DNA from: Candidatus Fimenecus excrementigallinarum
GTDB taxonomy: Bacteria; Bacillota; Clostridia; Oscillospirales; Acutalibacteraceae
Direction of reading: 5' to 3'
NCBI GenBank assembly: GCA_018714805.1
Contig: DVMW01000030.1
Span: 1,590-65,589 of the forward strand
Length of the DNA stretch: 64,000 nt
The translations under genes and the position numbers were made by a program. The stretch's first letter is position 1. Each line of letters begins with the position of its first letter. Shown here piece after piece: positions 1 to 15,448 of this stretch. Below the pieces are notes generated by a model that was given only the letters and a program-made list of their open reading frames with translations, made no database searches and was not told the DNA's origin.

Positions 1-204
1 TATAAACCAATCGACCCATCCCCCTTTTTTAGCGCCCGTGCGCCGGACTTCTGTTCATACGATACCACATCTTGCACCGCAAAACAATATGCTCGCAGCA
101 AACAGTTTGCAGGATATTTTTACAAAATGCGGCGCGTTTGGCTGTCGCCTGCCCGCGCGCGGGGGCGGGGGAACGGCCGCCTGCGCAGGAATTTTGCAAA
201 ACGC

Positions 205-233
205 TTGAAATCCGCAGGGAATTTCAGTATAAT
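205..233 (+). promoter_or_regulatory. candidate sigma-A promoter of the glycan locus
   Basis: TTGAAA 205-210, 17-nt spacer, TATAAT 228-233. AAGGAG RBS 288-293 precedes ATG 301. Confidence 0.5.
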
Positions 234-300
234 ACAATCGGAATTTTAGAAAGCAAAGCGGCCGCGGCGGCGCGGCTTTGCAAAAAAAAGGAGCAAAACT

Positions 301-1290
301 ATGGCAAACAAAGTACTGGTCACGGGGGCGGACGGCTTTATCGGCAGCCACCTGACGGAAGAACTTGTCAAGCAGGGCAAACGCGTCAAGGCGTTCGTGT
401 ATTATAATTCCTTCAATTCCTGGGGTTGGATTGACTCGCTGCCCAAAGAGATTCGGGACGAGATTGAGATTTTTGCCGGCGACATCCGCGACCCCAACGG
501 GGTGCGCGAGGCCATGACGGGCGTGGACACGGTGTTCCACCTGGCGGCGCTTATCGCCATTCCCTTCAGCTACCACTCGCCGGACTCCTATGTGGACACA
601 AACATCAAGGGCACGCTCAACGTCCTGCAGGCGGCGCGCCAGCTCGAGACGCGGCGCGTGCTTGTGACCTCTACGTCCGAGGTGTACGGCACGGCGCAGT
701 ATGTGCCGATTGACGAAAAGCACCCGTACCAGGGGCAGTCCCCGTATTCCGCGACCAAGATTGGCGCGGACCGCCTGGCTGAAAGCTTCTACCGCAGCTT
801 CAACCTGCCCGTGACCATCGTGCGGCCCTTTAACACCTACGGCCCGCGGCAGTCGGCGCGCGCGGTTATCCCGACCATCATCACCCAGCTGCTCTCCGGC
901 AAGGAGGAAATCAAGCTCGGCTCGCTGACGCCGACGCGGGATTTCAATTACGTCAAAGACACCGCCAACGGCTTTATTACGCTGTCGGAGGCGGACAACG
1001 TCATCGGCGAGGAGATTAACATCGCGACCCAGCAGGAAATTTCCATCGGCGAGCTTGCCAACGAGATTATTGCGCAGATTAATCCGAACGCGCGCATCCT
1101 CTGCGAGGAGGAGCGCCTGCGCCCCGAAAAAAGCGAGGTCAACCGGCTGCTCGGCAGCAACGAAAAGATTCGCCGCTTGACGTCCTGGGCGCCGAAATAT
1201 ACGTTTGCCGAGGGCATCCGCGAAACGATTGCCTGGTTTAAAGAGGGCAACCATATGGCGAGCTACAAGGCGGATATTTATAACGTATAA
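301..1290 (+). CDS. legB: NAD-dependent nucleotide-GlcNAc 4,6-dehydratase, LegB-like (extended SDR)
   Basis: ORF track, 329 aa. GADGFIGSH Rossmann motif and YSATK (YxxxK). The strings SARAVIPTIITQ and C-terminal YKADIYNV match what I recall from Campylobacter LegB-type dehydratases. First gene of the NulO cluster. Confidence 0.8.
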   Translation: MANKVLVTGADGFIGSHLTEELVKQGKRVKAFVYYNSFNSWGWIDSLPKEIRDEIEIFAGDIRDPNGVREAMTGVDTVFHLAALIAIPFSYHSPDSYVDTNIKGTLNVLQAARQLETRRVLVTSTSEVYGTAQYVPIDEKHPYQGQSPYSATKIGADRLAESFYRSFNLPVTIVRPFNTYGPRQSARAVIPTIITQLLSGKEEIKLGSLTPTRDFNYVKDTANGFITLSEADNVIGEEINIATQQEISIGELANEIIAQINPNARILCEEERLRPEKSEVNRLLGSNEKIRRLTSWAPKYTFAEGIRETIAWFKEGNHMASYKADIYNV

Positions 1291-1371
1291 GCGGGCGGCC
1301 GGGCTTTATGCCGGGCCGCAAGGCGATTTCAGAAAGGTGGGAAGGGGAAACGCGCGCCGTTTCCCCGCGTT

Positions 1372-2508
1372 ATGAGCAAATTTATTCCGTTGTCTGTGCC
1401 GAACCTCTGCGGCAACGAGGCGGCCTACTGCCAAAAGGCGATTGCGAGCGAATGGGTCTCCACGGGCGGCGCGTATATTACGGAGTTTGAAGAAAAAATC
1501 GCGGCCTATGTCGGCACGCCGGGCGCCGTCGCCTGCCAGAGCGGTACGGCGGGGCTGCATTTGGCGCTGCTTTCGTGCGGCGTCGGACAAAACGACGAGG
1601 TGCTTGTGCCGACGCTGACCTTCATCGCCGCCGTCAACCCCGTGAAATACGTCGGCGCCGAGCCGGTGTTCATGGACTGCGACGATACGCTGTGCATGGA
1701 TATGCAGAAGGTCGAGCGCTTCTGCGAAACCGAATGTGCAATGACGCCCGAAGGCCTTTTGGACAAGGCCACCGGGCGGTACGTCCGCGCCATGCTTGTC
1801 GTGCACGTGTTCGGCAACCTTGCCGACCTCGACAAGGCCGCGGCGCTCGCCGAAAAATATGATTTGGCCTTGATTGAGGACGCGACCGAGGCCCTGGGCA
1901 GCCGGTATTTGTCCGGCCGCTTTGCCGGGCGCTTTGCCGGCACCGTGGGCAAGGTCGGCGTCTACTCCTTCAACGGCAACAAAATCATCACGACCGGCGG
2001 TGGCGGGATGCTTGTCTCCGGGGACGAGGCGATTTTGCGCGAGGCGAAATACCTTTCGACCCAGGCCAAGGACGACACGCTGTATTTTGTCCACAACCAC
2101 ATCGGCTACAATTACCGCATGACGAACCTGCAGGCGGCGCTGGGCCTTGCGCAGCTGGAAAAGCTGGAGGATTTTATCCGCGTCAAGGCGGAAAACTACC
2201 GGGCGTATTTTGAAAACGGCATCGAGCTTTTGCCGTTCCGGGACGACATCCGCACGAACCACTGGTTCTACAGCTTCATGACGGACCGCCGCGACGAGCT
2301 TATCCGCGCGCTGTCCGAGCGCTCCATTCAGTCGCGCCCGGTCTGGCACCTCATAGCCGACCTGCCGCCCTACCAAAACTGCCGCGCATATGAGATTGCG
2401 CGCGCAAAATACTACTGGCAGCACATCGTCAACCTGCCGTGCAGCACCAACCTGACGAAGGAAGACGTCGCCGTGGTCGCAAAAGCGGTCCACGACATCT
2501 TAAAATAA
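1372..2508 (+). CDS. legC: DegT/DnrJ/EryC1-family PLP aminotransferase, LegC-like
   Basis: ORF track, 378 aa. Sugar aminotransferase pattern including the SFNGNK lysine block. Directly follows the dehydratase gene. Confidence 0.8.
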   Translation: MSKFIPLSVPNLCGNEAAYCQKAIASEWVSTGGAYITEFEEKIAAYVGTPGAVACQSGTAGLHLALLSCGVGQNDEVLVPTLTFIAAVNPVKYVGAEPVFMDCDDTLCMDMQKVERFCETECAMTPEGLLDKATGRYVRAMLVVHVFGNLADLDKAAALAEKYDLALIEDATEALGSRYLSGRFAGRFAGTVGKVGVYSFNGNKIITTGGGGMLVSGDEAILREAKYLSTQAKDDTLYFVHNHIGYNYRMTNLQAALGLAQLEKLEDFIRVKAENYRAYFENGIELLPFRDDIRTNHWFYSFMTDRRDELIRALSERSIQSRPVWHLIADLPPYQNCRAYEIARAKYYWQHIVNLPCSTNLTKEDVAVVAKAVHDILK

Positions 2509-2520
2509 ACGAGGTACGCT

Positions 2521-3570
2521 ATGGAGTTTGCGAAGTTTGTCGTTTCTCCCGACGTGACCGTCCTGCAGGCGATGGACGCCATCAACCGAAACGGCCGCGG
2601 GATAGTATACGTCTGCGACGCGCAAAAACGGCTGCTCGGCTGTGTGACGGACGGCGACGTCCGCCGGCACATCCTGCAAAACCTGCCGCTGTCGGCGCCG
2701 GTGCGCGACGCCATGAACCCGGAGCCCAAAAGCCTGTCGGTTGACCGGGCGGCCTCGGCGCATGAATTCATGCTCGAGCGCCACATTACCTCCGTGCCGC
2801 TTCTGGACCGGCACGGCTGCCTTGCCGGCGTGGATTTTCTCAACGCGCAGCAGGTGCACAAGCCCGAGCATCTCGACCTCCCCGTCGTGATTATGGCGGG
2901 CGGCAAGGGCACGCGGCTGTATCCGTACACCAAGGTGCTGCCCAAGCCCCTTATCCCGGTCGGCGACAAGACCATCATTGAGCTTATCATGGAGAAGTTT
3001 GAAAGCTTCGGCTGCGACCGGTTCAATGTCATTGTGAATTACAAGCGCAACATCATCAAATCCTTCTTTATGGACAGCGAGCAGGCGCACCGCGTGACCT
3101 TTACCGACGAGTACGAGTTTATGGGCACGGGCGGGGGGCTGAGGCTGCTCGAGGGGCAGTATGACGGCACGTTTTTCATGACGAACTGCGACGTGCTGCT
3201 CGAGGAGGATTACGGCGAGATTGTCCGGTACCACCGCGCGCAGCACAACATCCTGACCATGGTCTGCGCCATGAAAAACGTCTCCATTCCCTACGGCACG
3301 GTGGAGCTGCACGAGGACGGCAGCGTGGCGCGGCTGACGGAAAAGCCGAGCTTTTCCTTCCTGACGAACACCGGCATTTACCTGATTGAGCCGAAATTTC
3401 TGGAGTATATCCCGAAGGACCAGTTCATCCACATCACCGACGTCATTACCCGCTGCATTGAAGCGGGCGAGCACGTCGGCGCCTATCCCGTCGGGGAGCA
3501 GGCGTGGATGGATATGGGCGAGCTGCAGGAGCTCGAAAAAATGCGAAAGCGGTTGACGGATGATGGCTGA
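2521..3570 (+). CDS. CBS-pair plus sugar-1-phosphate nucleotidyltransferase (PtmE-like)
   Basis: ORF track, 349 aa. N-terminal CBS-type region of about 115 aa, then VVIMAGGKGTRLYPYTKVLPKPL (GxGTRL nucleotidyltransferase signature). Same architecture as Campylobacter PtmE, as recalled. Confidence 0.8.
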   Translation: MEFAKFVVSPDVTVLQAMDAINRNGRGIVYVCDAQKRLLGCVTDGDVRRHILQNLPLSAPVRDAMNPEPKSLSVDRAASAHEFMLERHITSVPLLDRHGCLAGVDFLNAQQVHKPEHLDLPVVIMAGGKGTRLYPYTKVLPKPLIPVGDKTIIELIMEKFESFGCDRFNVIVNYKRNIIKSFFMDSEQAHRVTFTDEYEFMGTGGGLRLLEGQYDGTFFMTNCDVLLEEDYGEIVRYHRAQHNILTMVCAMKNVSIPYGTVELHEDGSVARLTEKPSFSFLTNTGIYLIEPKFLEYIPKDQFIHITDVITRCIEAGEHVGAYPVGEQAWMDMGELQELEKMRKRLTDDG

Positions 3571-4225
3571 CGGATTGCTGCTGTTGGGCGGCGGCGGGCA
3601 CTGCTGTGCGGTGCTCGATTCGCTTTTGTCCGACCCGAACTGCCCTTACGGCAAAATCGCGGTGGTTGACGCGCCGCAAAAGCGCGGCGGGGAGCTGTTC
3701 CCCGGCGTGCCGTTTGTCGGGTCGGACGACGACCTGCCCCGCCTTCGCGCGGCGGGCTTTGCGTTTGCCTTTGTGACCGTCGGCAGCGTCGGCGACCCGT
3801 CGGCGCGCATCCGCCTGACGCAAACGGCCGAGCGGTATGGGTATGCCGTCCCGACCATTGTGGACCCGACCGCGGTCGTCGGCAAAAACGTGCGGCTCGG
3901 TTCCGGCGTCTATGTCGGCAAGCGCGCCGTGCTCAATTTCGGCTGCACGGTGGGCGACGGTTCGATTTTGAACACCGGCTGTATTGTGGAGCACCAGTGC
4001 GCCGTGGGCAGCTTCTGCCACATTGCGCCGGGCGCGGTGCTGTGCGGCGGCGTCCGCGTCGGCGACGGCGCGCATATCGGCGCGGGCAGCACGGTCCTGC
4101 AGGGCGTTTGCATCGGCGCGGGCGCGCTTGTCGGCCTTGGCAGCGCCGTCGTGCGCGATATTCCCGACTGCACGGTCGCTTACGGCAATCCCTGTACGCC
4201 CCGGCGGACGTCCCGCGCGGACTGA
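3560..4225 (+). CDS. hexapeptide-repeat sugar N-acetyltransferase, NeuD/PglD/LegH family
   Basis: ORF track, 221 aa. The ATG overlaps the upstream stop by 11 nt. LLLLGGGGHC N-terminal domain followed by left-handed beta-helix repeats (IGAGSTV, VGLGSAV). Confidence 0.75.
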   Translation: MMADGLLLLGGGGHCCAVLDSLLSDPNCPYGKIAVVDAPQKRGGELFPGVPFVGSDDDLPRLRAAGFAFAFVTVGSVGDPSARIRLTQTAERYGYAVPTIVDPTAVVGKNVRLGSGVYVGKRAVLNFGCTVGDGSILNTGCIVEHQCAVGSFCHIAPGAVLCGGVRVGDGAHIGAGSTVLQGVCIGAGALVGLGSAVVRDIPDCTVAYGNPCTPRRTSRAD

Positions 4226-4256
4226 CGCACGCGGCCAACCGAATTGGAGGGTTTTC

Positions 4257-5255
4257 ATGCAACCTTTGCTGAGCATTATTGTCCCGGCATATAATGTGGA
4301 AAAATATCTGGCGCAATGCCTGGATTCCGTTGTCCGGCAGGACAACGGGAAGCTGGAGATTGTCTTGGTCAACGACGGCTCTACCGACGGCACAGAGGCG
4401 GTTTGCCAAGCGTATGCGCAGCGCTATCCGTTTATCCGTGCCTTTTCGCAGGAAAACCTGGGCCTTTCCGCCGCGCGCAATTTCGGCATCCGCCGCGCCG
4501 CGGGGCAATACCTCAACTTCCTGGACAGCGACGACCTGCTGCCGGACGGCGCCGTCGCGGCGATTTGCGCCGCGCTGGAAGCTAAACTGCCGGACGTGCT
4601 TGTCGGGCTGTATGAACGGCTGGAGGAGGCGACCGGCGCGCGCACGCCCTGCGGGTACCGCCTGGAAAAGGAACAGGTGGATACGCTGCGCGGTGAGGCG
4701 CTGCTCAGGTACCTGATGACCGGCCGGGTCTACGACTGGTACGCGTGGCTCGTCACGGTTTCTGCCGCGTATCTGCGGCGGACGGACGCGTATTTTTGCG
4801 AGGGCGTGTATTTTGAAGACGCCCGCTGGACGCCGGGGGTGCTTCTGCGCGCCGGCTCGGTCCTGTATTTGGACGAGCCCCTGTACGTGTACCGGTGCGG
4901 GCGTGCCGGTTCCATTACGGCCACCTTTTCGGAAAAAGCGTTCGTCAACAAGCTCGAGCTGTTCTCCTTCTTTGAACAGTTTGCCGAGGCCGAGCAGCTG
5001 TCCGAGCAAACCAAGCGTCTTTTGTATACCAACATTTCGAACTCCTATGTTTCGATTTTGTTTGACAGCTGGGCGTTCCCGAAGGCCCGCCGCAAAGCGT
5101 ATCTGGAAAAAATGCGGCCGTATAAATTCATTTTGGCTTCTTCGCCGCGCGCGTATCACCGCCTGCTGGACAAGCTCTGGAGCGTCTTCGGGCTCACGTT
5201 TGTGTCTTTCCTGCTGCACCTGCGTGCAAAATGGGTCAGGAAGCGGATGCGGTAA
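4257..5255 (+). CDS. family 2 glycosyltransferase
   Basis: Internal ATG 4257 of ORF 3984-5255, with GGAGG at 4246-4250. SIIVPAYNVEKYL, VLVNDGSTDGT and LDSDD are GT-A/GT2 hallmarks. The 91 upstream codons overlap the acetyltransferase gene and are rejected. Confidence 0.8.
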   Translation: MQPLLSIIVPAYNVEKYLAQCLDSVVRQDNGKLEIVLVNDGSTDGTEAVCQAYAQRYPFIRAFSQENLGLSAARNFGIRRAAGQYLNFLDSDDLLPDGAVAAICAALEAKLPDVLVGLYERLEEATGARTPCGYRLEKEQVDTLRGEALLRYLMTGRVYDWYAWLVTVSAAYLRRTDAYFCEGVYFEDARWTPGVLLRAGSVLYLDEPLYVYRCGRAGSITATFSEKAFVNKLELFSFFEQFAEAEQLSEQTKRLLYTNISNSYVSILFDSWAFPKARRKAYLEKMRPYKFILASSPRAYHRLLDKLWSVFGLTFVSFLLHLRAKWVRKRMR

Positions 5256-5299
5256 CGCCGCCTTGGCGGCCGTTTCCTGCAAGAAAGGGTAAGGTTTTT

Positions 5300-7867
5300 A
5301 TGGGTAAGATAGAGCGATGGCTGGAAGGCCACCGGCTGACGGCTTTCTTTTTGAACCGCGATGCCTTCACGCTGATTTATGCGACGGTCTGCATCCTGTG
5401 GTTTTTTCCGCTGCTCGGGCGGGTTATGGACCCCGTCTCCAAGCTTTGCTTTATTTGGGGCGCGGCGCTGATTTTATGGGATTTCCTGACCCGGCGGCGG
5501 ATGTTCCGCTCGGTCTACTGGGCCCTGCCGCTTTTGCTCATCGCCGCCTTCGGGGTTACGATTCTCGTCAACATACGCCTGAACCTGTACATGGGCGTGA
5601 AACATATGGTCTACCTCGGCATCAGTCTGCTGCTTTTGTACGGGCAGGACCGCACGCGCAAGGCGGCCGATTTCCAAAAGCTGCTGCGCCGGCTCAACAA
5701 CGTGATAATCGGTGTTTCCTTTGTCGCGGCGCTGGTTTCCATCCTGATGTTCGTTTTCCAGATTTCGTTTGAGTTCCAGTCCGGCGACATCACGCAGCGG
5801 CAGGGCTTCCTGGAAAACCGCCTGTTCGGCGTGTATACAAGCCCCAACACCGGCGCGCTGTTCGTGGTTTTTTCGCTGGCGGCCACGCTGCTCAACGGGC
5901 TGCTCGCAAACGGCGGCAGGCTTCGGCTGCACTGGTTCTCCGTTGTCAATCTGGTGGTCCAGGGCATCTATTTTTCCCTCACGCTTTCGAACGGCGGCTT
6001 TTTGACGTATATCGCGTTCATGGTGCTGTTCGTCGCCGCGTATCTGTTCCCCAACGTCCTGAAAAAGAAGGGCGCGGGGAAGGCGGTCCTTTCCGCGCTG
6101 CTGGCGCTGGTGCTGCTTTGCGGCGGCACGTCCGTGCTCATGCTCGGCGTGCGCCGGGGTATGTCCTACATCCCGTCGCTTGTGGCGCACGTCCGGCAGC
6201 AGAGCGGGGAGGGTTCGGACGTGCCGGAGGAGGATGACGACCCCATTGCGTTTGAGCGGATTGAATCGGGCGACGATACCTCCAACGGCCGCTTCACCAT
6301 CTGGAGCGGCGGCATAAAGGCGTGGCTGCAGCAGCCGCTGTTCGGCTATGCGAATATGTGGGTCTCCGAGGGCGATACGCTGCCCTTTGAGACGGATACC
6401 TTTACCGAGGAAGAAAACACCTGGCTTTACAAGCACGCCGGCAATCTGCACAACGCGTACGTCCAGATTCTGGTCTACAGCGGCGCGGTCGGCATGGCGC
6501 TGTTTTTGGTGTTCGGCTGCCTGCTGTTCAAAAAGATTCTCCTGGCGCTTGTGCGCGGGCAAAAGGGGACGCAGTATTACGGCGTCCTCGCGGTTCTGCT
6601 CGCCATCATCGGCGCCGCCGCCGCCAACGGCATGGTGGAGGCGCACCTGCTGTACACGCGGCAGGACCCCTACGGCGCGCTGTTCTGGATTTATCTGGGC
6701 ATAGCGGCGGTGCTCGCCGACCGCAGCCGGTACGAAAACGCCGACCCCAAAACGCAGAAAACGGACGGCGCGCGCTTTGCCATGCTCGCGGACACGCCGT
6801 TCCAGACGATGAACTGCTGCAACTTTGTGCTGCAAAACGTGGCGGAAAGCGCGGGCAGCGCCGACCTGTATATTTACCACCAGTTCCGCGGCTCGCATGA
6901 GCTGGCCGAGCGCGCGCGGCAAAGCGGCGTGTTCCAGAACGTATACGACATCGAGCCGTACCGGAAATACCCCTCGCTTGTGCAGAAATTCGCGACCATC
7001 TTCCGGCTGTTTTTGCCGGAGCGCGCCGTTGAGCACATCTGCACGGAAAAGCTGCGCCTTGCGCGCAAGCGGTACGAAAAAATCTGCATCAGCTTCCCGA
7101 CGACCTTTACGCTGGGTATGCACTGGGCGTTTCAGTCCGCGGAGGTGTACCATTTGGAGGACGGGCTCGGCTCCTACGGCGGGAACATCACGACCGACTA
7201 TACCACGGGGCTGTATCAGCTTATCAACCGCTTCCTGTACCACGGCGAAATGGACATGAACCCCGCGGTCTGCTATCTGTCCGCACCGGATTTTTCCAAG
7301 AACACCATCGGCGGCGAGGTGCGCCGCCTGCCCGCCATGCAGGCCGGAAAAGGGCTTGAGACGATTGAGCGGATTTTCGGCTACCGCGCCAACGACCTGT
7401 ACCGCGGCCGCGTCGTCTATCTGTCGCAGCCGCTGTCCGAGCGGCCGATTTACCATGCGGAATGGGACGCGCAGATTGTGCAGGCGCTGCAAAAGTACCT
7501 GCCCGACCGCACGGTGGTGCGCTTGCACCCGCGGCAGAAGGATTTGGACGTCGGCAGCCTGCAAAGGGATACGTTCGGGAACCTGTGGGAGCTCGAATGC
7601 GTCCACCAGATTACGGAGGAAAACGTCCTTGTCAGCGCGTTTTCCACCGCGCAGTTCATGCCCAAAATCATGTGCGACCGCGAGCCCGCCGTTCTGTTTA
7701 CCTACCGGCTGGTGTTCGACAGCCTCGACGACCCGTTCTTAAAGGATTTTGCGGCGTTGATTGCGGATTTCAAAAAGCTCTATCGCCATCCGGAGCGCAT
7801 TTACGTGCCGGAGACGTTTGCACAGCTGGAGGCGATTTTGCAGTCGCTGCGCACAGAAAAAGCGTAA
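5300..7867 (+). CDS. fusion protein: Wzy/O-antigen-ligase-like polytopic membrane domain plus C-terminal sialyltransferase-like (GT52-like) domain
   Basis: Internal ATG 5300 of ORF 5231-7867 (855 aa). The N-terminal ~490 aa hold many hydrophobic helices and the block GNLHNAYVQILVYSGAVGMALF. The C-terminal ~350 aa are soluble and carry TPFQ, EDG (7157-7165) and HPRQ (7526-7537). Confidence 0.65.
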   Translation: MGKIERWLEGHRLTAFFLNRDAFTLIYATVCILWFFPLLGRVMDPVSKLCFIWGAALILWDFLTRRRMFRSVYWALPLLLIAAFGVTILVNIRLNLYMGVKHMVYLGISLLLLYGQDRTRKAADFQKLLRRLNNVIIGVSFVAALVSILMFVFQISFEFQSGDITQRQGFLENRLFGVYTSPNTGALFVVFSLAATLLNGLLANGGRLRLHWFSVVNLVVQGIYFSLTLSNGGFLTYIAFMVLFVAAYLFPNVLKKKGAGKAVLSALLALVLLCGGTSVLMLGVRRGMSYIPSLVAHVRQQSGEGSDVPEEDDDPIAFERIESGDDTSNGRFTIWSGGIKAWLQQPLFGYANMWVSEGDTLPFETDTFTEEENTWLYKHAGNLHNAYVQILVYSGAVGMALFLVFGCLLFKKILLALVRGQKGTQYYGVLAVLLAIIGAAAANGMVEAHLLYTRQDPYGALFWIYLGIAAVLADRSRYENADPKTQKTDGARFAMLADTPFQTMNCCNFVLQNVAESAGSADLYIYHQFRGSHELAERARQSGVFQNVYDIEPYRKYPSLVQKFATIFRLFLPERAVEHICTEKLRLARKRYEKICISFPTTFTLGMHWAFQSAEVYHLEDGLGSYGGNITTDYTTGLYQLINRFLYHGEMDMNPAVCYLSAPDFSKNTIGGEVRRLPAMQAGKGLETIERIFGYRANDLYRGRVVYLSQPLSERPIYHAEWDAQIVQALQKYLPDRTVVRLHPRQKDLDVGSLQRDTFGNLWELECVHQITEENVLVSAFSTAQFMPKIMCDREPAVLFTYRLVFDSLDDPFLKDFAALIADFKKLYRHPERIYVPETFAQLEAILQSLRTEKA

Positions 7868-7912: not shown

Positions 7913-9346
7913 ATGGCAAAGCCCTCCGTGAGCCTTAAAAAGCTGCTGCTCGGAAAAAGCGCAAACCAGCTTGCGTTTTTCAATATTCTGGGGCCCGTTA
8001 TCTTAAACGGCGTCAACTTTTTCACCGTGCCGATTTTCACCCGGCTGCTCGGCGCGGAAAATTACGGCATCATCTCGCTGTATACGACCTGGGTGCAGAT
8101 TTTGACCATCCTCATGGGGCTGCAAACCTGCAGCACCATTTCGACGGCGCGCGTGCACATCCCCGAAAAGGAGCACAACGCCTATTATTCCAGCATCCTC
8201 TCGCTGTCGTGCCTGGTTTCGGCGGTCTTTACGGCGGTTATTGTGGCCTTTATCGGGCCCATTTCCGCCTTCCTGCAATTTGACAAGCTTATCGTGCTTT
8301 TGATGTTCGCGCAAAGCTTCGGCGCCTATGTGGTCAGCTTTGCGAGCATGAAGTTTATCCACCACAAGCAGGCGCACCTCAATTTCCTCGTGTCCGTCGG
8401 CGTCACGCTATTGTCCATTGGGATTGCGCTGGCGATTATCAGCGCTACAGACCGCTTCGAGGACCGCTACTGGGGCCGCATCATCGGGTATGTCGTGCCG
8501 AATGTCGGCATCGGGCTTGTGCTTGCCGTCCTGATTTTTGCCCGGGGCAAAACGGGGTATTCCAAAAAATACTGGCGGTTCTGCCTGCCGCTTTGCCTGC
8601 CGCTTGTGCTGCACAGCCTGTCGCAGATTATTTTGGCGCAGTCCGACAAGGTCATGCTGCAAAAGCTGCTCAGCGACAACGCCGCGGTCGGCATTTACAG
8701 CTTTGTGTTCAACTTCGTCCACATCCTGAACGTCATTTACAGCGCGCTCAACAACACCTGGGTGCCGCTTTACTACGACCATATGAAAAACGGCGAGGAC
8801 GCCGACATCCAGCGCCGCAGCAAGAATTACATCGCGCTGTACGCCGTGCTGACCATGGGCTTCATGCTTCTGTCGCCCGAGGTCATTAAGCTGTTCGCCT
8901 CCGAGGAATTCTGGTCGGGCACCACGCTTGTCCCCGTCATGGCCGTTTCCTTTTACATGGTCTTTCTTTACAGCTTCCCGGTCAATTTTGAATTTTACCA
9001 CAAGCAGACGCGCGTGATTGCCTTCGGGACCTGCATGGCGGCGCTCGTCAACATCGTCGCCAACTACTTCATGATTCCCGTCTGGGGCATTTTCGGCGCC
9101 GCGCTTGCAACGATGCTCTCGTACATCATGCTGTTCGTGTTCCATCAGATTATGGCGAAATACGTGGTGAAGGAAGCGGCGTACCACTACAAGCTGCGTA
9201 TTTTCCTGCCCGGGCTTATCGCGGTGTGCGCCGTCGGGGGGCTTTTCTATCCGCTGCTCGATTTCTGGTACATCCGCTGGGGCCTCGGCGCTGCGATGGG
9301 CGTGTATATGCTCGTGCGGCTCTATAAGCAGAAAAGCATTTTTTAA
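7913..9346 (+). CDS. wzx: Wzx-type oligosaccharide flippase (MOP superfamily polysaccharide biosynthesis protein)
   Basis: ORF track, 477 aa. Highly hydrophobic throughout with roughly 12-14 helices. Located inside the glycan locus. Confidence 0.75.
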   Translation: MAKPSVSLKKLLLGKSANQLAFFNILGPVILNGVNFFTVPIFTRLLGAENYGIISLYTTWVQILTILMGLQTCSTISTARVHIPEKEHNAYYSSILSLSCLVSAVFTAVIVAFIGPISAFLQFDKLIVLLMFAQSFGAYVVSFASMKFIHHKQAHLNFLVSVGVTLLSIGIALAIISATDRFEDRYWGRIIGYVVPNVGIGLVLAVLIFARGKTGYSKKYWRFCLPLCLPLVLHSLSQIILAQSDKVMLQKLLSDNAAVGIYSFVFNFVHILNVIYSALNNTWVPLYYDHMKNGEDADIQRRSKNYIALYAVLTMGFMLLSPEVIKLFASEEFWSGTTLVPVMAVSFYMVFLYSFPVNFEFYHKQTRVIAFGTCMAALVNIVANYFMIPVWGIFGAALATMLSYIMLFVFHQIMAKYVVKEAAYHYKLRIFLPGLIAVCAVGGLFYPLLDFWYIRWGLGAAMGVYMLVRLYKQKSIF

Positions 9347-9382: not shown

Positions 9383-10420
9383 TTGCCGAAGTTTAGTGTA
9401 ATCATCCCCGTGTACGGTGCGGAAGCGTACCTCGCCAAATGCGTGGACAGCATCTTGACGCAGCCGTGCCGGGATTTGGAGGTTATCCTGGTCGACGACT
9501 GCTCCAAAGACGGCAGCGGCAAAATCTGCGACGACTTTGCGGCGCGCGACGCGCGCGTTCGGGTTTTGCACAAGCCGCAGAACGAAGGCCTCGGCTATGC
9601 GCGCCGCGACGGGCTGGCCGCGGCGGCGGGGGAGTGGATTCTGTTTGTGGATTCCGACGATTGGATTGAAGCGAACACCCTGCAGACCCTGTCCGACAGC
9701 ATCGAGCCGGATGTGGACATCCTGGTGTTCGGCATGACGCTCTGCTTTGAAAACGCGGCCGGCGAGACGGTCCGCACGGAGGTCATTTCGCCCGAGCGAG
9801 CCAAAGCGCACGGGGCGCGGGAGCTGGGGGATTTGCTGATGCGCCTGGACTCGCAGCGCAGCTTCCCGTATATGTGCAACAAGCTCTACCGCGCGCAGTT
9901 CCTGGCGGACGCGGCGGTCCCGTTCAATACGATTCAGAGTATGGAGGACTTCTTTTACAACATAGAGGTCTTTGAAAAGGCAGGCGGCGTGCGCGTTTTG
10001 TCCGAGCCGTTTTACTGTTACCGCAAGCCGGCGCGCGAAACGCTGGTGTCCGCCTACAACCCCGATTTCTTTGCACTGAGCAAAAGGCGCACGGCGGCGG
10101 AGCGGGCGTTTTTGCAGCGCAGCGGCGCGGACACCGAGGAAAACCTGCAAAAGCTCGACAAAATCTTTCTCAACCACCTAATCTCCTGCCTGATTAAAAA
10201 CGCGGCGTCCAACAGCCCGCTGTCGGGCAGGGAGCAGCGGCAAAGGGCGGCGGAGATGCTGCGCGACCGCGACACGCGGGCCATGCTGCGGCACATTCGC
10301 TGCGGGGGGCTTCGCTACCGGGTAATCCTGCTGATTTTCCGCCTGCGGCTGGCGTTTGCCGCCGTGTGGGTGGGGCAGCTTGCGTGCCGGCTCGGCGCGC
10401 GTTCGCTGCAGCACGGGTAA
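9383..10420 (+). CDS. family 2 glycosyltransferase
   Basis: ORF track, 345 aa. TTG start with AAGGAG at 9368-9373. FSVIIPVYGAEAYL, ILVDDCSKDGS and VDSDD motifs. Hydrophobic C-terminal tail. Confidence 0.8.
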   Translation: MPKFSVIIPVYGAEAYLAKCVDSILTQPCRDLEVILVDDCSKDGSGKICDDFAARDARVRVLHKPQNEGLGYARRDGLAAAAGEWILFVDSDDWIEANTLQTLSDSIEPDVDILVFGMTLCFENAAGETVRTEVISPERAKAHGARELGDLLMRLDSQRSFPYMCNKLYRAQFLADAAVPFNTIQSMEDFFYNIEVFEKAGGVRVLSEPFYCYRKPARETLVSAYNPDFFALSKRRTAAERAFLQRSGADTEENLQKLDKIFLNHLISCLIKNAASNSPLSGREQRQRAAEMLRDRDTRAMLRHIRCGGLRYRVILLIFRLRLAFAAVWVGQLACRLGARSLQHG

Positions 10421-10433
10421 AAGAGGGGTCAAC

Positions 10434-11450
10434 ATGACGTTTTCCGACAAGCATATTTTCATCATTGCCGAAGCGGGCGTCAACCACAACGGCAGCATGG
10501 AAACCGCGCGCCGCATGATAGACGCCGCCTGCGAAGCCGGCGTGGACGCCATCAAGTTCCAGACGTTCCGCTCGGAAAAGCTGGTTTCCCGCACGGCGCA
10601 GAAGGCGGACTACCAGAAGCGCAATACCCACAGCGACGATTCCCAGCTTTCCATGCTCAAAAAGCTGGAGCTGCGCTTCGACCAGTTTGCAGAGCTGAAG
10701 CGGTACTGCGACGAAAAGGGCGTCCTGTTTTTGTCCACGCCGTTCGATTTCGACAGCATCGCGTTTTTGGATACGCTCGCGCTGCCGGTGTTTAAGATTC
10801 CCTCCGGCGAGATTACCAACCTGCCGTATCTGCAGGCGGTCGCCGAAACGCACCGCGACGTAATCTTGTCGACCGGCATGGCGGAGCTTGCGGAGGTCGA
10901 GGCGGCGCTCTCGGCGCTGCGGCGGTACGGCGCGGGCAGCATTGCGCTGCTGCACTGCACAACGGAATATCCAACGCCGATGCGCGAGGTCAACCTGCGC
11001 GCCATGGAAACGCTGCGCAAGGCTTTCTCGCTTCCCGTCGGCTATTCCGACCACACCGCGGGCATCGAGGTCTCCGTCGCGGCGGCGGCGCTCGGCGCGT
11101 GTATTCTGGAAAAGCATTTTACGCTCGACCGCAATATGGAGGGCCCCGACCACAAGGCGAGCCTGGAGCCGGACGAGCTTGCCGCGCTGGTGCGCAGCGT
11201 CCGCAACGTGGAAGCGGCGCTCGGGGACGGCGACAAAAAACCGACGCCGTCGGAGGCGCGCAACCGGCCCGTCGCCCGCAAAAGCATTGTCGCCGCCTGC
11301 GACATCCGCGCGGGCGAGACGTTCACGACGGAAAATCTGACCGTCAAGCGTCCCGGCAGCGGCATTTCGCCCATGCGCTGGTACGAGGTGCTCGGCCAAA
11401 CGGCGCCCCGCGATTTTGCCGCGGACGAATTGATTGAACTCGGGAAGTAA
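10434..11450 (+). CDS. neuB: nonulosonic acid synthase (NeuB/LegI family)
   Basis: Internal ATG 10434 of ORF 10356-11450 (338 aa). IFIIAEAGVNHNGS N-terminus, LLHCTTEYPTP, and a C-terminal SAF-like domain (RKSIVAACDIRAGETFT). Confidence 0.9.
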   Translation: MTFSDKHIFIIAEAGVNHNGSMETARRMIDAACEAGVDAIKFQTFRSEKLVSRTAQKADYQKRNTHSDDSQLSMLKKLELRFDQFAELKRYCDEKGVLFLSTPFDFDSIAFLDTLALPVFKIPSGEITNLPYLQAVAETHRDVILSTGMAELAEVEAALSALRRYGAGSIALLHCTTEYPTPMREVNLRAMETLRKAFSLPVGYSDHTAGIEVSVAAAALGACILEKHFTLDRNMEGPDHKASLEPDELAALVRSVRNVEAALGDGDKKPTPSEARNRPVARKSIVAACDIRAGETFTTENLTVKRPGSGISPMRWYEVLGQTAPRDFAADELIELGK

Positions 11451-11463
11451 GGGGGCTTAAACG

Positions 11464-12627
11464 GTGCAGGAAATCGCAGTCGTGACCGCCACGCGGGCGG
11501 AATACGGGCTGCTGCGGCCCGTTGTGCGCGCGCTGCGGGCAAGCGGGGCGTTTCGGGTCTCGCTGCTTGTGACCGGCGCGCACCTGTCCGAAGCGTACGG
11601 CGAAACGGTTCGGGAAATTGAACGCGACGATATGCCCATTGCCGCGCGCATCCCCATTTTGTCCGGGGACGACACGCCCCGCGGCGTAAGCGGCACCATG
11701 GCGAACGCCCTAAACGGGTTTGCCGCCTATTTCGAAGCGCATCGGCCCGACGCGCTGCTGGTGCTCGGCGACCGGTATGAGATTTTGGCGGTCTGCTGCG
11801 CGGCGATGAACGCGCGCATCCCGATATTCCACCTGCACGGCGGCGAGACGACCCAGGGCGCCGTTGACGAGGCGATTCGCCATTCCATCACCAAAATGAG
11901 CCTGCTGCACTTTACCAGCAACGAGCAGCACCGCAGGCGCGTCATTCAGCTCGGCGAACAGCCCGACCGGGTGTTCAACGTCGGCGCGCCGGGTGTGGAA
12001 AACGCGCTGCACGTGCCGCTGCTGTCCAAAGAAGCGCTCGCCGAAAGCGTCGGCCTGCCGCTGCAAAAGCCCTATGCGGTCGTGACCTTCCACCCGGTTA
12101 CGCTCGAAGACGAGCCGCCCGAGCGCCAGCTTTTCGAGCTTTTCGCGGCCATGGACGCGTTTGACCTCGAATACATCATCACCAAGGCGAACGCCGACGC
12201 CGGCGGACTCGCCATCAACCGCGCCGTCGACGATTACGCCGCAAAGCGGGACAATGTCGCGGCCTTTGATTCTCTGGGCCTTGTCCGGTACTTGAGCGCC
12301 GTAAAATACTGCGCGTTCGTCGCCGGCAATTCCTCCAGCGGTATTCTGGAGGCCCCGTCCTTCGGCGTGCCGACGGTCAATATCGGCGACCGGCAAAAGG
12401 GACGTATGCAGGCCGAAAGCGTGCTGCAATGCGCGCCGGCGCGCGCGGACATTGCCCGTGCGTTTGCACAGGCGCTGACGCCGGCGTTTCAAAACAAGGC
12501 CGCGCACGCGGTTAACCCGTACGGCGACGGCGATACGAGCGGCAAGATAGTCGCCATCCTACAGCGCGTGTTTTCGGGTCCGCTGGATTTGAAAAAAACG
12601 TTTTACGACATTGATTTTACCGTTTAA
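11464..12627 (+). CDS. neuC: nucleotide-sugar 2-epimerase (hydrolysing), NeuC/LegG family
   Basis: ORF track, 387 aa, GTG start. VTATRAEYGLLRPV, GDRYEILA and HLHGGETTQGAVDE are typical of hydrolysing 2-epimerases. Confidence 0.9.
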   Translation: MQEIAVVTATRAEYGLLRPVVRALRASGAFRVSLLVTGAHLSEAYGETVREIERDDMPIAARIPILSGDDTPRGVSGTMANALNGFAAYFEAHRPDALLVLGDRYEILAVCCAAMNARIPIFHLHGGETTQGAVDEAIRHSITKMSLLHFTSNEQHRRRVIQLGEQPDRVFNVGAPGVENALHVPLLSKEALAESVGLPLQKPYAVVTFHPVTLEDEPPERQLFELFAAMDAFDLEYIITKANADAGGLAINRAVDDYAAKRDNVAAFDSLGLVRYLSAVKYCAFVAGNSSSGILEAPSFGVPTVNIGDRQKGRMQAESVLQCAPARADIARAFAQALTPAFQNKAAHAVNPYGDGDTSGKIVAILQRVFSGPLDLKKTFYDIDFTV

Positions 12628-12644: not shown

Positions 12645-13625
12645 ATGCAGATTGTGGTCGTCGGCCTTGGCTCCATGGGCAAGCGCCGTATCCGGCTTTT
12701 ACAGCAGTTTTTTCCGCAGCACACCGTCGCCGGCGTCGATGCGCAGCCGGCGCGCCGCGCGGAATGCGCCGAAGCGTTTGGCATAAAAACCTTTGCGTCG
12801 TTTGACGAGGCGGTGCAAAGCACCCGTCCGCAGGCGGCGCTGATTTGCACGTCGCCGCTGTCCCACGCTGCGCTCATTGCCGAAGCGCTGCAAAACGGGC
12901 TGCACGTGTTTACCGAAATCAACCTGGTGCCCGACCGGTACGCGGAAAACATCCGCGCCGCGCAGGAAAAGGGCCTGACGCTGTTTTTGTCCTCCACGTT
13001 TTTGTATCGGGAGGAGATTCGCCGCATCCGCGCGCTGCTGGCGGCGCAGACCCGGCCGGTCTCCTATACCTACCACGTCGGGCAGTACCTGCCGGACTGG
13101 CACCCGTGGGAAAGCTACAAGAACTTTTTCCTCGGCGACAAGCGCACCGACGGCTGCCGGGAAATTCTGACGATAGACCTGCCCTGGCTGCTCAAGACGT
13201 TCGGCCCGGTCGAAGACGTCCACGTGTTCCGTACAAAGCTCACGCAGCTGGAGATTGATTACCCCGACACGTACTGCGTCAGCCTGCGGCACCAAAACGG
13301 GTGCCTCGGCGTGTTTGTCGCGGACGTGGTGGCGCGCGCGCCGTTTCGCGAGCTGCGCGTCAGCGGGGAGGACCTGCTCATAACCTGGGACGGGACGCCG
13401 GACAGCCTGCGCCGGTTCGACATCGAAAAGAAGGCGTGGGAAACAATTCCCGTCGGCACGCGCGTGGCGCACCGCGACGGGTACGCCGCGACCATTACCG
13501 AGGACGCGTATCTTGAGGAGCTGCAGGCCTTTTTTGCGGCGGTGGAACGCGGCGAAATCCCGCCGTACACCTTTGCGGACGACTACGAAACGCTGCGGCT
13601 GATTGACAGGATTGAACAGGTATGA
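12645..13625 (+). CDS. Gfo/Idh/MocA-family oxidoreductase
   Basis: ORF track, 326 aa. N-terminal Rossmann VVVGLGSMGKRR. Shares the YLPDWHP block with the next gene. Confidence 0.7.
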   Translation: MQIVVVGLGSMGKRRIRLLQQFFPQHTVAGVDAQPARRAECAEAFGIKTFASFDEAVQSTRPQAALICTSPLSHAALIAEALQNGLHVFTEINLVPDRYAENIRAAQEKGLTLFLSSTFLYREEIRRIRALLAAQTRPVSYTYHVGQYLPDWHPWESYKNFFLGDKRTDGCREILTIDLPWLLKTFGPVEDVHVFRTKLTQLEIDYPDTYCVSLRHQNGCLGVFVADVVARAPFRELRVSGEDLLITWDGTPDSLRRFDIEKKAWETIPVGTRVAHRDGYAATITEDAYLEELQAFFAAVERGEIPPYTFADDYETLRLIDRIEQV

Positions 13626-14566
13626 AAAGATTTTGCATGGTCGGCGTCGGCTCGATTGGGACCCGGCACCTGAAAAATCTGACGGCGCTTCTGCGCGAAC
13701 GCGGCGTCGAGTTCCAAATTGATGCGCTCCGAAGCAGCGACCGTCCGCTGCCCGCCGAAACGGCGGCGCTGCTGCACCGCACCTACACGCGCGCCGAGGA
13801 CCTGCCCGGCGGCTACGACGCGGTGTTCATCACCAATCCGACGGCGCTGCATTATGCCGCCATGCAGGCCTGCATGGACAAAACGCGGCATATGTTTATC
13901 GAAAAGCCCGTGTTTGACCGGACGGACCTGGACCTTGGCGCGCTGCGCTGCAAGCCGGACGGCGTTTATTATGTCGCCTGCCCGCTGCGGTACCGCCGCG
14001 TGATTGCCTATATGAAGGAATTGACGCAGCAGCACCCCGTGTTTGCCGCCCGTGCGATTTGCTCGACCTATCTGCCCGACTGGCGGCCGGGCGTCGATTA
14101 CCGGCAGACCTACAGCGCCCGCCGCGAGCTCGGCGGCGGCGTCGGGATTGACCTTATCCACGAATGGGATTATCTGTGCTACCTGTTCGGCAGGCCGAAC
14201 CGCGTCTATGCGCTCAGCGGGACCTACTCGGACCTCGAGGTCACCAGCGACGACCTCGCGGTCTATATCGGGCAGTACGACCGGCTGCTCGTCAGCCTGC
14301 ACCTCGATTATTTCGGCCGCTTTGACCGGCGCGAGGTGGAGCTGTATCTGCCCGACGACGTGGTTGTCGGCGACCTTATCCGCAGCGAGGTCCGCTTTTT
14401 GAAAAGCGGAAAGACCGCCGCCCTGCCGGAAAGCCGGGACGACTACCAAAAGCGCGAAATCGCCTGCTTCCTCGATATGCTCGAGGGCAGGCAGGAAAAC
14501 CACAACCCGCTTGCGCTCGCCGTGGACGTGCTGAAAATCACGCGCGGCGAAACGGGTCGGGCGTAA
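13622..14566 (+). CDS. Gfo/Idh/MocA-family oxidoreductase (paralogue of the preceding gene)
   Basis: ORF track, 314 aa. ATGA overlap with the upstream stop. MVGVGSIGTRH Rossmann motif and a YLPDWRP block. Confidence 0.7.
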   Translation: MKRFCMVGVGSIGTRHLKNLTALLRERGVEFQIDALRSSDRPLPAETAALLHRTYTRAEDLPGGYDAVFITNPTALHYAAMQACMDKTRHMFIEKPVFDRTDLDLGALRCKPDGVYYVACPLRYRRVIAYMKELTQQHPVFAARAICSTYLPDWRPGVDYRQTYSARRELGGGVGIDLIHEWDYLCYLFGRPNRVYALSGTYSDLEVTSDDLAVYIGQYDRLLVSLHLDYFGRFDRREVELYLPDDVVVGDLIRSEVRFLKSGKTAALPESRDDYQKREIACFLDMLEGRQENHNPLALAVDVLKITRGETGRA

Positions 14567-14611: not shown

Positions 14612-15385
14612 ATGAACGTGCATATTTTATTTACCGTCTGCGGCCGCGCAGGCTCCAAAGGCGCAAAGGGCAAAAATGTCCGCGATTTTCTGGACTATCC
14701 GCTGGTCTACTACACCTTTTCCGTTATCGACCTCTACAAAAACCGGTATGCGTCGCCGGCCGACCGCTGCGACGTTGCCTTAAGCACCGACAGCCCGCGC
14801 TTAATCGAGCTCGCCAAAGGTGTAAAGCTCGACATCTTTACCGTGAACCGCAGCGCGGACCTCGCCGGCGATTTTGTGGCGAAGTTTGACGTGATTCGGG
14901 ACTGCACCCGGCGCGCGCAGGCGCATTACGGCGTGCAGTACGATATGGTCGTCGATTTGGACATCACCTCACCTCTGCGTAAAGTGGAGGACCTTGTCAA
15001 CGTAATCCGCAAAAAGCAGGAGCGTCCCGAGATGGATTTGGTCTTTACGGTGACGGGGGCGCGGCGCAATCCGTATTTCAACATGGTTTCCGAGCAAAAC
15101 GGCAGCTACGCGGCGGTGATTCCCAGCGCCTATGTCTCGCGCCAGCAGGCGCCGGCGGTCTATGACATGAACGCGTCCATTTACGCCTACAGCCGCGCGT
15201 ACATCGAGTCCGACAAGGACAGCAAGACCCGCACGGCGGACATTGTGATGATGCAGGATACCGCGGTGCTCGACATCGACAGCGACGGCGATTTTGAAAT
15301 GCTGCAGCTGCTTGCCGGGTATTTTTACCAAAAGGATTCCGCCTTCGCCGAGGTCCGGGACCACATCCCGCAAATCCTGCGGTAA
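14612..15385 (+). CDS. neuA: acylneuraminate cytidylyltransferase family (CMP-NulO synthetase, NeuA/LegF-like)
   Basis: ORF track, 257 aa. CGRAGSKGAKGKN P-loop-like motif of CMP-sugar synthetases. The alternative GTG 14618 is better spaced from the AAAGGAG at 14604-14610. Confidence 0.85.
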   Translation: MNVHILFTVCGRAGSKGAKGKNVRDFLDYPLVYYTFSVIDLYKNRYASPADRCDVALSTDSPRLIELAKGVKLDIFTVNRSADLAGDFVAKFDVIRDCTRRAQAHYGVQYDMVVDLDITSPLRKVEDLVNVIRKKQERPEMDLVFTVTGARRNPYFNMVSEQNGSYAAVIPSAYVSRQQAPAVYDMNASIYAYSRAYIESDKDSKTRTADIVMMQDTAVLDIDSDGDFEMLQLLAGYFYQKDSAFAEVRDHIPQILR

Positions 15386-15391
15386 CGCGTG

Positions 15392-15442
15392 CAAAAACAG
15401 AAGCGGGGCGGGCAGCTGTTTGGCTGTCCGCCCCGTTTTTTT
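15392..15442. terminator. bidirectional rho-independent terminator between the glycan locus and the sdh operon
   Basis: 13-bp stem CGGGGCGGGCAGC (15404-15416) pairs with GCTGTCCGCCCCG (15423-15435). A-run upstream and T7 run at 15436-15442. Confidence 0.8.
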
Positions 15443-15448
15443 GCCGTT

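Follow-up and report, generated by a model that had tools for sequence, protein, structure and literature searches.

A Wzy_C-type membrane domain and a sialyltransferase-like GT-B domain joined in one polypeptide within a predicted legionaminic acid locus of gut Clostridia

The stretch of DNA analysed here (hereafter the window) comprises 64,000 nucleotides (nt) of contig DVMW01000030.1 from Candidatus Fimenecus excrementigallinarum, and its first 15.4 kb form one co-directional gene cluster (Table 1). Within this cluster lies a gene that joins, in a single polypeptide, a polytopic membrane domain of the Wzy_C/WaaL type to a soluble glycosyltransferase (GT) domain of GT-B fold resembling the bacterial sialyltransferases of families GT38 and GT52. 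From 5300 to 7867 (+) the frame stays open for 855 codons and then ends in a stop, in agreement with the single uninterrupted frame described in an earlier reading of the letters made without database searches (the sequence-only reading); the strings and coordinates given there were exact: TPFQ (6794-6805), EDG (7157-7165), RLHPR (7520-7534) and HAGNLHNAYVQILVYSG around H384 (6449-6451). The mechanically called open reading frame (ORF) begins at an ATG at 5231 (878 residues), still inside the upstream GT2 gene, whose stop is at 5255; a start at 5300 is likely because P0001, the database twin of the protein (855 residues, 100% identity), begins there. The G+C content of the gene is 61%, and a 710-residue antisense ORF (5474-7606, -) was rejected as a real gene: family matches and homologues were found for the plus-strand product only, and the antisense frame is a shadow of the 61% G+C gene. 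The other long antisense ORFs across the window are likewise shadow frames typical of coding DNA of this composition, none of them having supporting evidence. An AlphaFold model of the whole protein, built on 35 homologues (predicted local distance difference test, pLDDT, 86.1; predicted template modelling score, pTM, 0.77), puts the start of the soluble domain at residue 493 (nt 6776), close to the nt 6770 proposed from the letters.

Table 1. The fusion gene, its domains and motifs, and the neighbouring genes of the cluster (positions in the window).
Feature	Residues	Position	Strand	Basis or remark
Fusion gene, Wzy_C-type membrane domain + GT38/GT52-like GT-B domain	1-855	5300..7867	+	855 codons + stop
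Membrane domain, twelve transmembrane helices	1-479	5300..6736	+	DSSP of model, PF04932, Foldseek, loop charges
Helices 1-12	20-34, 37-63, 75-90, 92-114, 122-152, 182-203, 212-228, 231-257, 259-288, 386-419, 425-444, 457-479		+	DSSP of AlphaFold model
Large acidic extracytoplasmic loop between helices 9 and 10 (97 residues)	289-385	6164..6454	+	model, charge counts
Loop residues R320, R331, H384	320, 331, 384	6257-6259, 6290-6292, 6449-6451	+	invariant columns, 35 homologues
G395, inside helix 10 just past the loop	395	6482-6484	+	invariant; completes H-x10-G with H384
Linker, NADPKTQKTDGAR	480-492	6737..6775	+	low pLDDT at 482-488; length varies in homologues; gene boundary falls here in split relatives
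Cytoplasmic GT-B glycosyltransferase domain, predicted CMP-nonulosonate transferase	493-855	6776..7864	+	domain model, Foldseek, PF07388 in relatives
T-P-x-Q (T499 P500 F501 Q502), after first beta-strand of GT-B domain	499-502	6794..6805	+	P500, Q502 invariant, T499 nearly (35 homologues)
D/E-D/E-G (E620 D621 G622), predicted catalytic-base loop	620-622	7157..7165	+	G622 invariant, E620 nearly
Q-P (Q710 P711), start of C-terminal Rossmann half	710-711	7427..7432	+	Q710 invariant, P711 nearly; kept in all split forms
R-x-H-P-R (R741 H743 P744 R745), predicted CMP-phosphate stabiliser	741-745	7520..7534	+	all four invariant in 35 homologues
W-E-L-E (W763-E766), candidate ribose-binding Glu	763-766	7586..7597	+	W763, E764 invariant; E766 nearly
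S-T (S782 T783), candidate phosphate-binding pair	782-783	7643..7648	+	invariant; S-T-A in every split form
LegB dehydratase		301-1290	+	TIGR04180, 522 bits (cut-off 475)
LegC aminotransferase		1372-2508	+	TIGR04181, 444 bits (cut-off 420)
CBS-nucleotidyltransferase		2521-3570	+	Pfam
NeuD/PglB-type acetyltransferase		3560-4225	+	TIGR03570, 192 bits
GT2 glycosyltransferase, immediately upstream of fusion		4257..5255	+	PF00535, E 3e-34; ATG 4257 after GGAGG
Wzx-type flippase, immediately downstream of fusion		7913..9346	+	PF01943, 97.7 bits
Second GT2 glycosyltransferase		9383..10420	+	PF00535, E 1e-35
NeuB-family synthase		10434-11450	+	TIGR03569, 513 bits; ATG 10434 after AGAGGGG
Hydrolysing 2-epimerase		11464-12627	+	TIGR03568, 456 bits
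Two tandem GFO/IDH/MocA oxidoreductases		12645-14566	+	Pfam
CMP-sugar synthetase		14612-15385	+	PF02348

The N-terminal half is a Wzy_C/WaaL-fold enzyme domain. Family PF04932 (Wzy_C) matches residues 218-403 with 61.7 bits against a cut-off of 31.7 (E-value, E, 9e-17) and is found in all 35 aligned homologues, while the top membrane-protein match of the model among the Protein Data Bank (PDB) structures is, by Foldseek, the O-antigen ligase WaaL (7tpg, E 4.6e-6, template modelling score, TM, 0.51); profile search of the PDB retrieved, for this half, an oligosaccharyltransferase (9rmk, E 0.047) and again WaaL (7tpg, E 0.18). The Wzy/O-antigen-ligase-type assignment of the sequence-only reading is thus borne out by the Pfam and Foldseek matches, and its more specific 'repeat-unit polymerase' becomes one possible reading, with which a ligase or an O-oligosaccharyltransferase is about equally compatible. 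In the model the helices are accompanied by a beta-hairpin after helix 5, and the WaaL fold itself comprises about 12 helices, of which the last three come after a long extracytoplasmic loop (PMC10920833). When the protein is aligned by profile to 7tpg_B, an alignment whose overall E is only 0.18, R331 falls on WaaL R265 and H384 on WaaL H313, with no counterpart identified for WaaL R191; in WaaL, R265 is one of two diphosphate-binding arginines and H313 is the acceptor-activating histidine (PMC10920833). Besides the residues listed in Table 1, many other positions of the loop are invariant over the 35 homologues, down to 35% identity.

A simple hydropathy scan undercounted the helices, and the set used here combines the AlphaFold boundaries with charge counts. 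The loops assigned to the cytoplasm have two to four Lys/Arg each, in the window protein as well as in the mean of the 35 homologues; the short outer loops have none or one, with the exception of loop 5-6 (a mean of two to three, including the invariant R174), and the large loop holds 18 Asp/Glu versus 5 Lys/Arg. Because of the twelve helices and the positive-inside rule, both termini are predicted to be cytoplasmic, with the transferase domain inside and the catalytic loop of the Wzy_C domain outside, so that model and charge bias agree in placing the C-terminal domain in the cytoplasm and not on the extracytoplasmic side. The arrangement had been called mechanistically odd in the sequence-only reading, in view of a cytoplasmic CMP-sugar transferase being attached to an enzyme of the outer face. 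With the predicted topology this paradox does not arise: a 12-helix fold of the WaaL type ends in the cytoplasm, and the two activities would act on opposite faces in sequence, an arrangement for which WadA of Brucella (see below) provides a precedent. The cytoplasm is the compartment that contains CMP-sugars, and GT38 enzymes are also known to act at the cytoplasmic side (PMC5517516).

Modelled alone, the C-terminal half adopts a glycosyltransferase fold, GT-B (pLDDT 94.9, pTM 0.93), and its four best Foldseek matches in the PDB are all bacterial sialyltransferases: M. haemolytica MhPST of family GT38 occupies the first two ranks (5wcn_A, E 4.1e-11; 5wc6_A, E 3.5e-10; TM 0.57-0.60) and the Neisseria lipooligosaccharide sialyltransferase NST of family GT52 the next two (2yk4, E 8e-8; 2yk6, E 3e-7; TM 0.43-0.47), followed by generic GT-B enzymes and 2-epimerases. 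Identity to MhPST is about 12%, and the sialyltransferase link in the PDB is made through fold comparison only. Among the relatives, PF07388 (GT38) is matched by 13 of the 35 fused homologues (E <= 0.1; best E 6.8e-9) and by 25 of 53 mostly stand-alone relatives (E <= 0.01), five of which also match PF07922 (GT52). This second family is matched by 1 of the 35 fused proteins (E 0.017) and by 5 of the 53 mostly stand-alone ones (best E 2.2e-9), and not by the window protein at E <= 1. BLASTP of the stand-alone Atopococcus protein against NeuS (taken from the Escherichia coli UTI89 kps locus) aligned the EDG region alone (E 0.013). A marginal match to a GT25 structure (8xc8, E 0.098, 70 residues) was treated as chance. 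Taken together, the soluble domain is a divergent relative of the GT38/GT52 sialyltransferases with what would be their full set of catalytic motifs. The sialyltransferase-type assignment made from the letters holds, with the correction that the nearest family is GT38 and not GT52, which comes second in fold.

In the fused family (35 homologues) the motifs T-P-x-Q, E-D-G, Q-P, R-x-H-P-R, W-E-L-E and S-T are fully or almost fully invariant, and they persist in the stand-alone and split relatives (51-53 proteins at 19-39% identity). Two of them, D/E-D/E-G and HP, had been singled out from the letters as hallmarks of bacterial sialyltransferases; they are indeed present in this order and conserved in the relatives checked, except that locus L016 has HL in place of HP. 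Taken alone, both might arise by chance; because they are kept across the fused homologues and the stand-alone relatives, their presence is, as judged from these alignments, more than chance. The same two motifs unite GT38, GT52 and GT80, and in NmB-polyST their residues E153/G154 and H278/P279 are essential or important (Freiberger et al., PMC2169525). The distance from EDG to HP is 122 residues, compared with 125 in NmB-polyST and 138 in MhPST (PMC2169525, PMC5517516), the E-D-G stands between a strand and a helix in the models, as in MhPST (PMC5517516), and hhalign places EDGLGSY on the EEGTGTY of 'IEEGTGTY' and LHPRQ on 'PHPKE' of NeuS, with low probability. In MhPST, E153 acts as the base, H291, whose function is proven, as the acid, E323 contacts the ribose and S339/T340 the CMP phosphate (Lizak et al., PMC5517516). 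From E766 to S782 there are 16 residues, the same spacing as from E323 to S339 of MhPST (PMC5517516), and either E764 or E766 is a candidate for the equivalent of E323, E764 being the one kept in the split forms. The T-P-x-Q motif is retained in the split forms as TP/Q-x-Q/H, and its suggested counterparts are Q41/Q44 of MhPST, near the catalytic base (PMC5517516).

The fusion is genuine and conserved, and not an artefact. The same architecture is found in 43 homologues from independent assemblies (774-891 residues, at least 89% query coverage, 35-100% identity), all with both parts fused in one frame and with a linker of similar length. When one genome per species was scanned, 12 fused loci came to light; they belong to uncultured Clostridia, Christensenellaceae, Ruminococcaceae and Dorea, and the one nearest to the window (L002, 95% identity) is from a metagenome-assembled genome (MAG) of an uncultured 'Eubacteriales'. 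A survey of split and fused versions, as proposed in the sequence-only reading, also revealed natural split forms in both orders. In L016 and L029 the two genes follow the order of the fusion and overlap by 4 nt, and in L017 they are separated by 48 nt; in Atopococcus (L013) and the cultured Aerococcus kribbianus (L014), by contrast, the order is reversed, with a transferase of 360-368 residues directly upstream of the Wzy-like gene. These stand-alone transferases exceed the PF07388 cut-off (45.7 bits in L013, 32 bits in L014), and the NCBI name of the Aerococcus relative is 'polysialyltransferase family glycosyltransferase'. The pair of A. kribbianus YH-aer221 (L014, 9812-10894 and 10906-12372) belongs to the same two families and has Wzx, GT2, NeuB and CMP-synthetase genes in its locus; the split pairs of Lactobacillales and Clostridia differ from the window protein in being separate genes, in either order, and in showing only 21-28% identity to it. 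In a set of 1.84 billion protein representatives, 1,188 relatives of the C-terminal domain, fused and stand-alone, were found at E <= 1e-3, mainly from uncultured gut and rumen Clostridia; the best 150 of them comprise 37 fused, 106 stand-alone and 7 other proteins. The database members looked up are nameless, except for one 'O-antigen ligase'. As read from their sequences, two relatives seem to have other partners: P0091 (653 residues) has a GT2-like N-terminus and one hydrophobic segment before the sialyltransferase-like domain, and P0180 (1074 residues) has a GT4/GT1-like N-terminus, the sialyltransferase-like domain and extra C-terminal sequence. Directly upstream of the sialyltransferase-like gene, L013 (6928-8646) and L014 (6618-8342) carry an arylsulfotransferase gene (PF05935), which raises the possibility of glycan sulfation at these two loci.

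With LegB and LegC above their NCBIfam cut-offs, the locus in the window is predicted to be a CMP-legionaminic acid biosynthesis cluster, and the sequence-only reading was right to place the gene inside a nonulosonic acid locus. Its further proposal, that the fusion supplies the 'missing' nonulosonate transferase, is upheld as a prediction from fold, motifs and context: the soluble domain is the sole sialyltransferase-like candidate in the locus, the GT2 neighbours having been rejected for this role as ordinary PF00535 proteins. A NeuB or CMP-synthetase homologue occurs in the flanks of 13 of the 16 loci with the transferase domain, fused or adjacent, versus 1 of 30 loci (mostly of Enterococcus and Oscillospiraceae) with a Wzy-like relative alone (Fisher p 7e-8). 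The cassettes themselves are of several kinds: legionaminic-type in the window, L002, L007, L012 and L016; pseudaminic-type (PseB, PseF, PseI, a GNAT protein and PseC) in L006 and L010; and a minimal one of a synthase and a long CMP-synthetase in L001, L004 and L005, which have no LegB/C/G or PseB/C homologues nearby. The long synthetase (L004, 4901-6535; also in L001 and L005) has 544 residues, the first ~180 covered by PF02348 and the remaining 300-plus without Pfam match. In nearly every related locus the fusion is followed by a Wzx homologue, whose conservation (51-79% identity) exceeds that of the fusion (36-62%), as in L008 (79% versus 60-62%) and L005 (71% versus 41-50%), which hints at a flippase specific for a unit capped with nonulosonic acid. 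No polytopic proteins other than the fusion and Wzx are encoded in the first 20 kb of the window or in L004, L006 and L007, and the fusion is the sole Wzy-type candidate there.

Other features of these loci are as follows. The mechanical ORFs of the first GT2 gene (3984-5255) and of the NeuB-family gene (10356-11450) overlap their neighbours, and the starts given in Table 1 are better supported. The GFO/IDH/MocA pair is kept in the equivalent position in L012, L016 and L002 (48-97% identity across those), and a 160-residue ORF at the end of the cluster (15389-15871), without Pfam match, has an 81% identical counterpart in L002. The genes seen in the upstream flanks of L007 and L010 code for surface proteins, a peptidase and enzymes that modify sugars. 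In L007, from a Ruminococcaceae MAG, the fused locus is closely preceded by a gene (175-6624) for a 2149-residue protein with Listeria-Bacteroides repeats and Big_2 domains that could be a target of glycosylation. In L052 (1-1157, 8001-10673), a distant stand-alone relative, P0115, adjoins a Wzx and a 513-residue protein without Pfam match.

Among the closest known systems is WadA of Brucella, similar in design although not in family, in which an O-antigen ligase domain is joined to a GT25 domain that works in the cytoplasm and attaches the last sugar of the core (PMC9938171); a clade with coupled GT25 and GT121 domains has also been noted by the CAZy curators (PMC10920833). Both proteins combine, in one polypeptide, a cytoplasmic nucleotide-sugar transferase and a WaaL-type polytopic domain with an outward catalytic loop, and the membrane domain of WadA depends in its reaction on the terminal sugar that the soluble domain attaches. 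However, the two differ in several respects: (i) the transferase is N-terminal in WadA and C-terminal in the fusion; (ii) the soluble domain of WadA is a GT25 of GT-A fold, that of the fusion a GT38/GT52-like GT-B, and sequence kinship of the soluble domains is not among the shared features; (iii) WadA belongs to a Gram-negative alphaproteobacterium with lipopolysaccharide, and its sugar is glucose, not a nonulosonic acid. With the GT38 enzymes (E. coli NeuS, N. meningitidis SiaD, MhPST; PF07388) the fusion shares the GT-B fold, the D/E-D/E-G and HP motifs at comparable spacing, an S-T pair and a Glu downstream of HP that are candidates for the same roles, the membrane tether and, by prediction, action at the inner face; it differs from them in its Wzx-dependent context, where GT38 has an ATP-binding cassette (ABC) transporter (kps), in its predicted donor, CMP-legionaminic acid, and in that a single addition would be expected and not polymerisation. 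A GT52 enzyme, streptococcal CpsK, serves a Gram-positive Wzx/Wzy capsule pathway, in which it adds the terminal sialic acid. As a family, GT52 (Neisseria Lst/NST, CpsK; PF07922) is the second-best structural match and has the same two motifs (PMC2169525), but its TM values reach only 0.43-0.47, and Lst/NST and CpsK are stand-alone proteins. The enzymes of the WaaL/Wzy/PglL type (Wzy_C, GT121 and neighbours) resemble the fusion in the twelve helices, the outward loop between helices 9 and 10, and the Arg and His on WaaL R265 and H313, and lack its cytoplasmic transferase of ~360 residues at the C-terminus. In the literature that we searched, no protein was described that fuses a domain of the Wzy or ligase type to a sialyltransferase-like one or to a nonulosonate transferase, an absence that is no proof of none; this agrees with the sequence-only reading, which knew of no such fusion. 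The only characterised precedent for a two-sided enzyme is WadA.

These observations suggest the following account, set in a Gram-positive gut member of the Clostridia and in a pathway for surface glycans that depends on Wzx. The locus would produce CMP-legionaminic acid, and the C-terminal GT-B domain, held at the inner face by helix 12 and credited with activity by its fold and motifs, would move the nonulosonic acid from the CMP donor to an undecaprenyl-diphosphate (Und-PP)-linked oligosaccharide made by the neighbouring GT2 enzymes. The chemistry would be that of an inverting sialyltransferase, with D621/E620 as base, H743 stabilising the CMP phosphate, and S782/T783 and a Glu of W-E-L-E holding the nucleotide. 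The adjacent Wzx would then flip the capped unit to the outer face, where the N-terminal Wzy_C domain, through the outward loop with R320, R331 and H384, would transfer a lipid-linked glycan en bloc. For the last step we favour polymerisation of repeat units in which the unit just capped serves as acceptor, so that the protein would make the acceptor end and then use it, in a logic like that of WadA. The core of this account, a cytoplasmic nonulosonate transferase joined to an outward-acting transferase of Und-PP-linked glycans, we consider very probable; for the account as a whole, including the polymerase, we see the chances as evenly balanced. That one sugar serves both halves, in that the nonulosonic acid added on the cytoplasmic side is the acceptor or an obligatory recognition element for transfer at the outer face, is a tentative idea that we regard as rather doubtful.

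Several observations weigh against this account, and some of them concern the last step. The closest solved relatives of the membrane half are a ligase (7tpg) and an oligosaccharyltransferase (9rmk), so that at the level of these matches polymerisation is not told apart from ligation, and neither the window nor the upstream flanks of L007 and L010 showed a chain-length regulator, an LCP ligase or an initiating transferase. The membrane half may instead be a ligase or O-oligosaccharyltransferase that passes a short nonulosonate-capped glycan from the carrier lipid to a protein, to a polymer of the cell wall or to a lipid, which we hold to be quite possible, if short of probable. It is nearly as likely as polymerisation because of these solved relatives, the Arg/His set, the compactness of loci without chain-length regulators and the precedent of WadA, itself a ligase fused to a last-sugar transferase (PMC9938171). 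R331/H384 and the H-x10-G spacing match the catalytic set of WaaL, and polymerase families of the same clan usually have Asp/Glu where WaaL has its His, although one inverting polymerase clan also retains a conserved His (PMC10920833). The large surface protein beside the locus in L007 would suit ligation too. The structural preference for WaaL is, however, biased, because no Wzy structure is among the PDB matches, and attachment to peptidoglycan in Gram-positive bacteria normally proceeds through LCP enzymes. We favour polymerisation slightly because most loci lack any other Wzy candidate and because the Dorea locus L012 has the classical layout of a Wzx/Wzy locus, with genes for an initiating phosphoglycosyl transferase (PF02397), a DUF4422 transferase and a GT2 ahead of the fusion.

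The remaining points against the favoured account concern the soluble half. The window protein scores 17.3 bits (full protein) or 20.2 bits (domain) with PF07388, below the cut-off of 23.3, and therefore is no member of GT38 by the Pfam criterion; an NCBIfam scan of the fusion protein gave no match, searches of the PDB by sequence (with the C-terminal domain, the Atopococcus stand-alone protein and two profiles) gave no match to a sialyltransferase, and comparison of the family profile with the single sequence of E. coli K1 NeuS by hhalign reached a probability of only 10-12% (E 0.002-0.003). Since the cassettes differ between loci, the donor sugar probably varies within the family, and because KpsF-like and KdsC-like genes lie alongside P0115 in L052, some members may handle Kdo-type or other ulosonic acids. 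The setting of P0115 and the PF07388 score below the cut-off, with the fact that the closest family, GT38, comprises polymerases (PMC5517516), would fit a domain that is itself a processive nonulosonic acid polymerase or that uses another donor such as CMP-Kdo, but we think this improbable: the adjacent Wzx and the Und-PP-type machinery suit short units and not long cytoplasmic polymers, true GT38 systems, the UTI89 kps locus among them, export through ABC transporters (PMC5517516) and genes of the kps type are absent here, the association with NeuB and CMP-synthetase is strong, and the mono-sialyltransferases of GT52 are almost as near in fold. GT38 enzymes also require membrane association through an N-terminal anchor (PMC5517516), and stand-alone transferases are the majority of the best 150 relatives, both of which could be taken to mean that the membrane half is a catalytically inert anchor keeping the transferase next to Wzx. 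The invariance of R320, R331, H384, G395 and many loop residues, and the full Wzy_C profile in every one of the 35 homologues, would be unexpected for a mere anchor and make this reading very improbable. Finally, the 4-nt overlap in some split relatives means that, in principle, a single-base error, a lost stop codon or a frameshift, could join two genes during sequencing or assembly; with 43 fused homologues from independent samples and assemblers, and 12 fused loci in genome assemblies, such an origin is hardly conceivable.

The fusion is thus a previously undescribed combination of two known kinds of enzyme, conserved in gut Clostridia and with a published conceptual precedent; both domains come from known superfamilies, and no new chemistry is called for. 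Its interest lies in part in the scarcity of knowledge about transferases for legionaminic and pseudaminic acids (PMC5420450), no legionaminic acid transferases having been reported according to one paper (PMC7439481): the family, with ~1,200 cluster representatives and with at least one carrier of the split form, Aerococcus kribbianus, in culture, offers concrete candidates for both sugars. If both halves do act on the same sugar, these proteins would constitute a family, widespread in gut Firmicutes, of transferases for legionaminic and pseudaminic acids, the fusion would hard-wire across the membrane a specificity check in which the acceptor is made and then used, it might form a relay with the co-conserved Wzx, and, together with WadA, it would point to a general principle for two-sided enzymes of glycan assembly. 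A second, independent joining of such halves, with another soluble fold and the domains in reverse order, would mean that the design seen in WadA arose more than once. That the two genes occur in fused, split and reversed states is genomic evidence for joint work of the transferase and the Wzy-type enzyme, a functional link that can guide the reconstitution of glycans containing nonulosonic acids.

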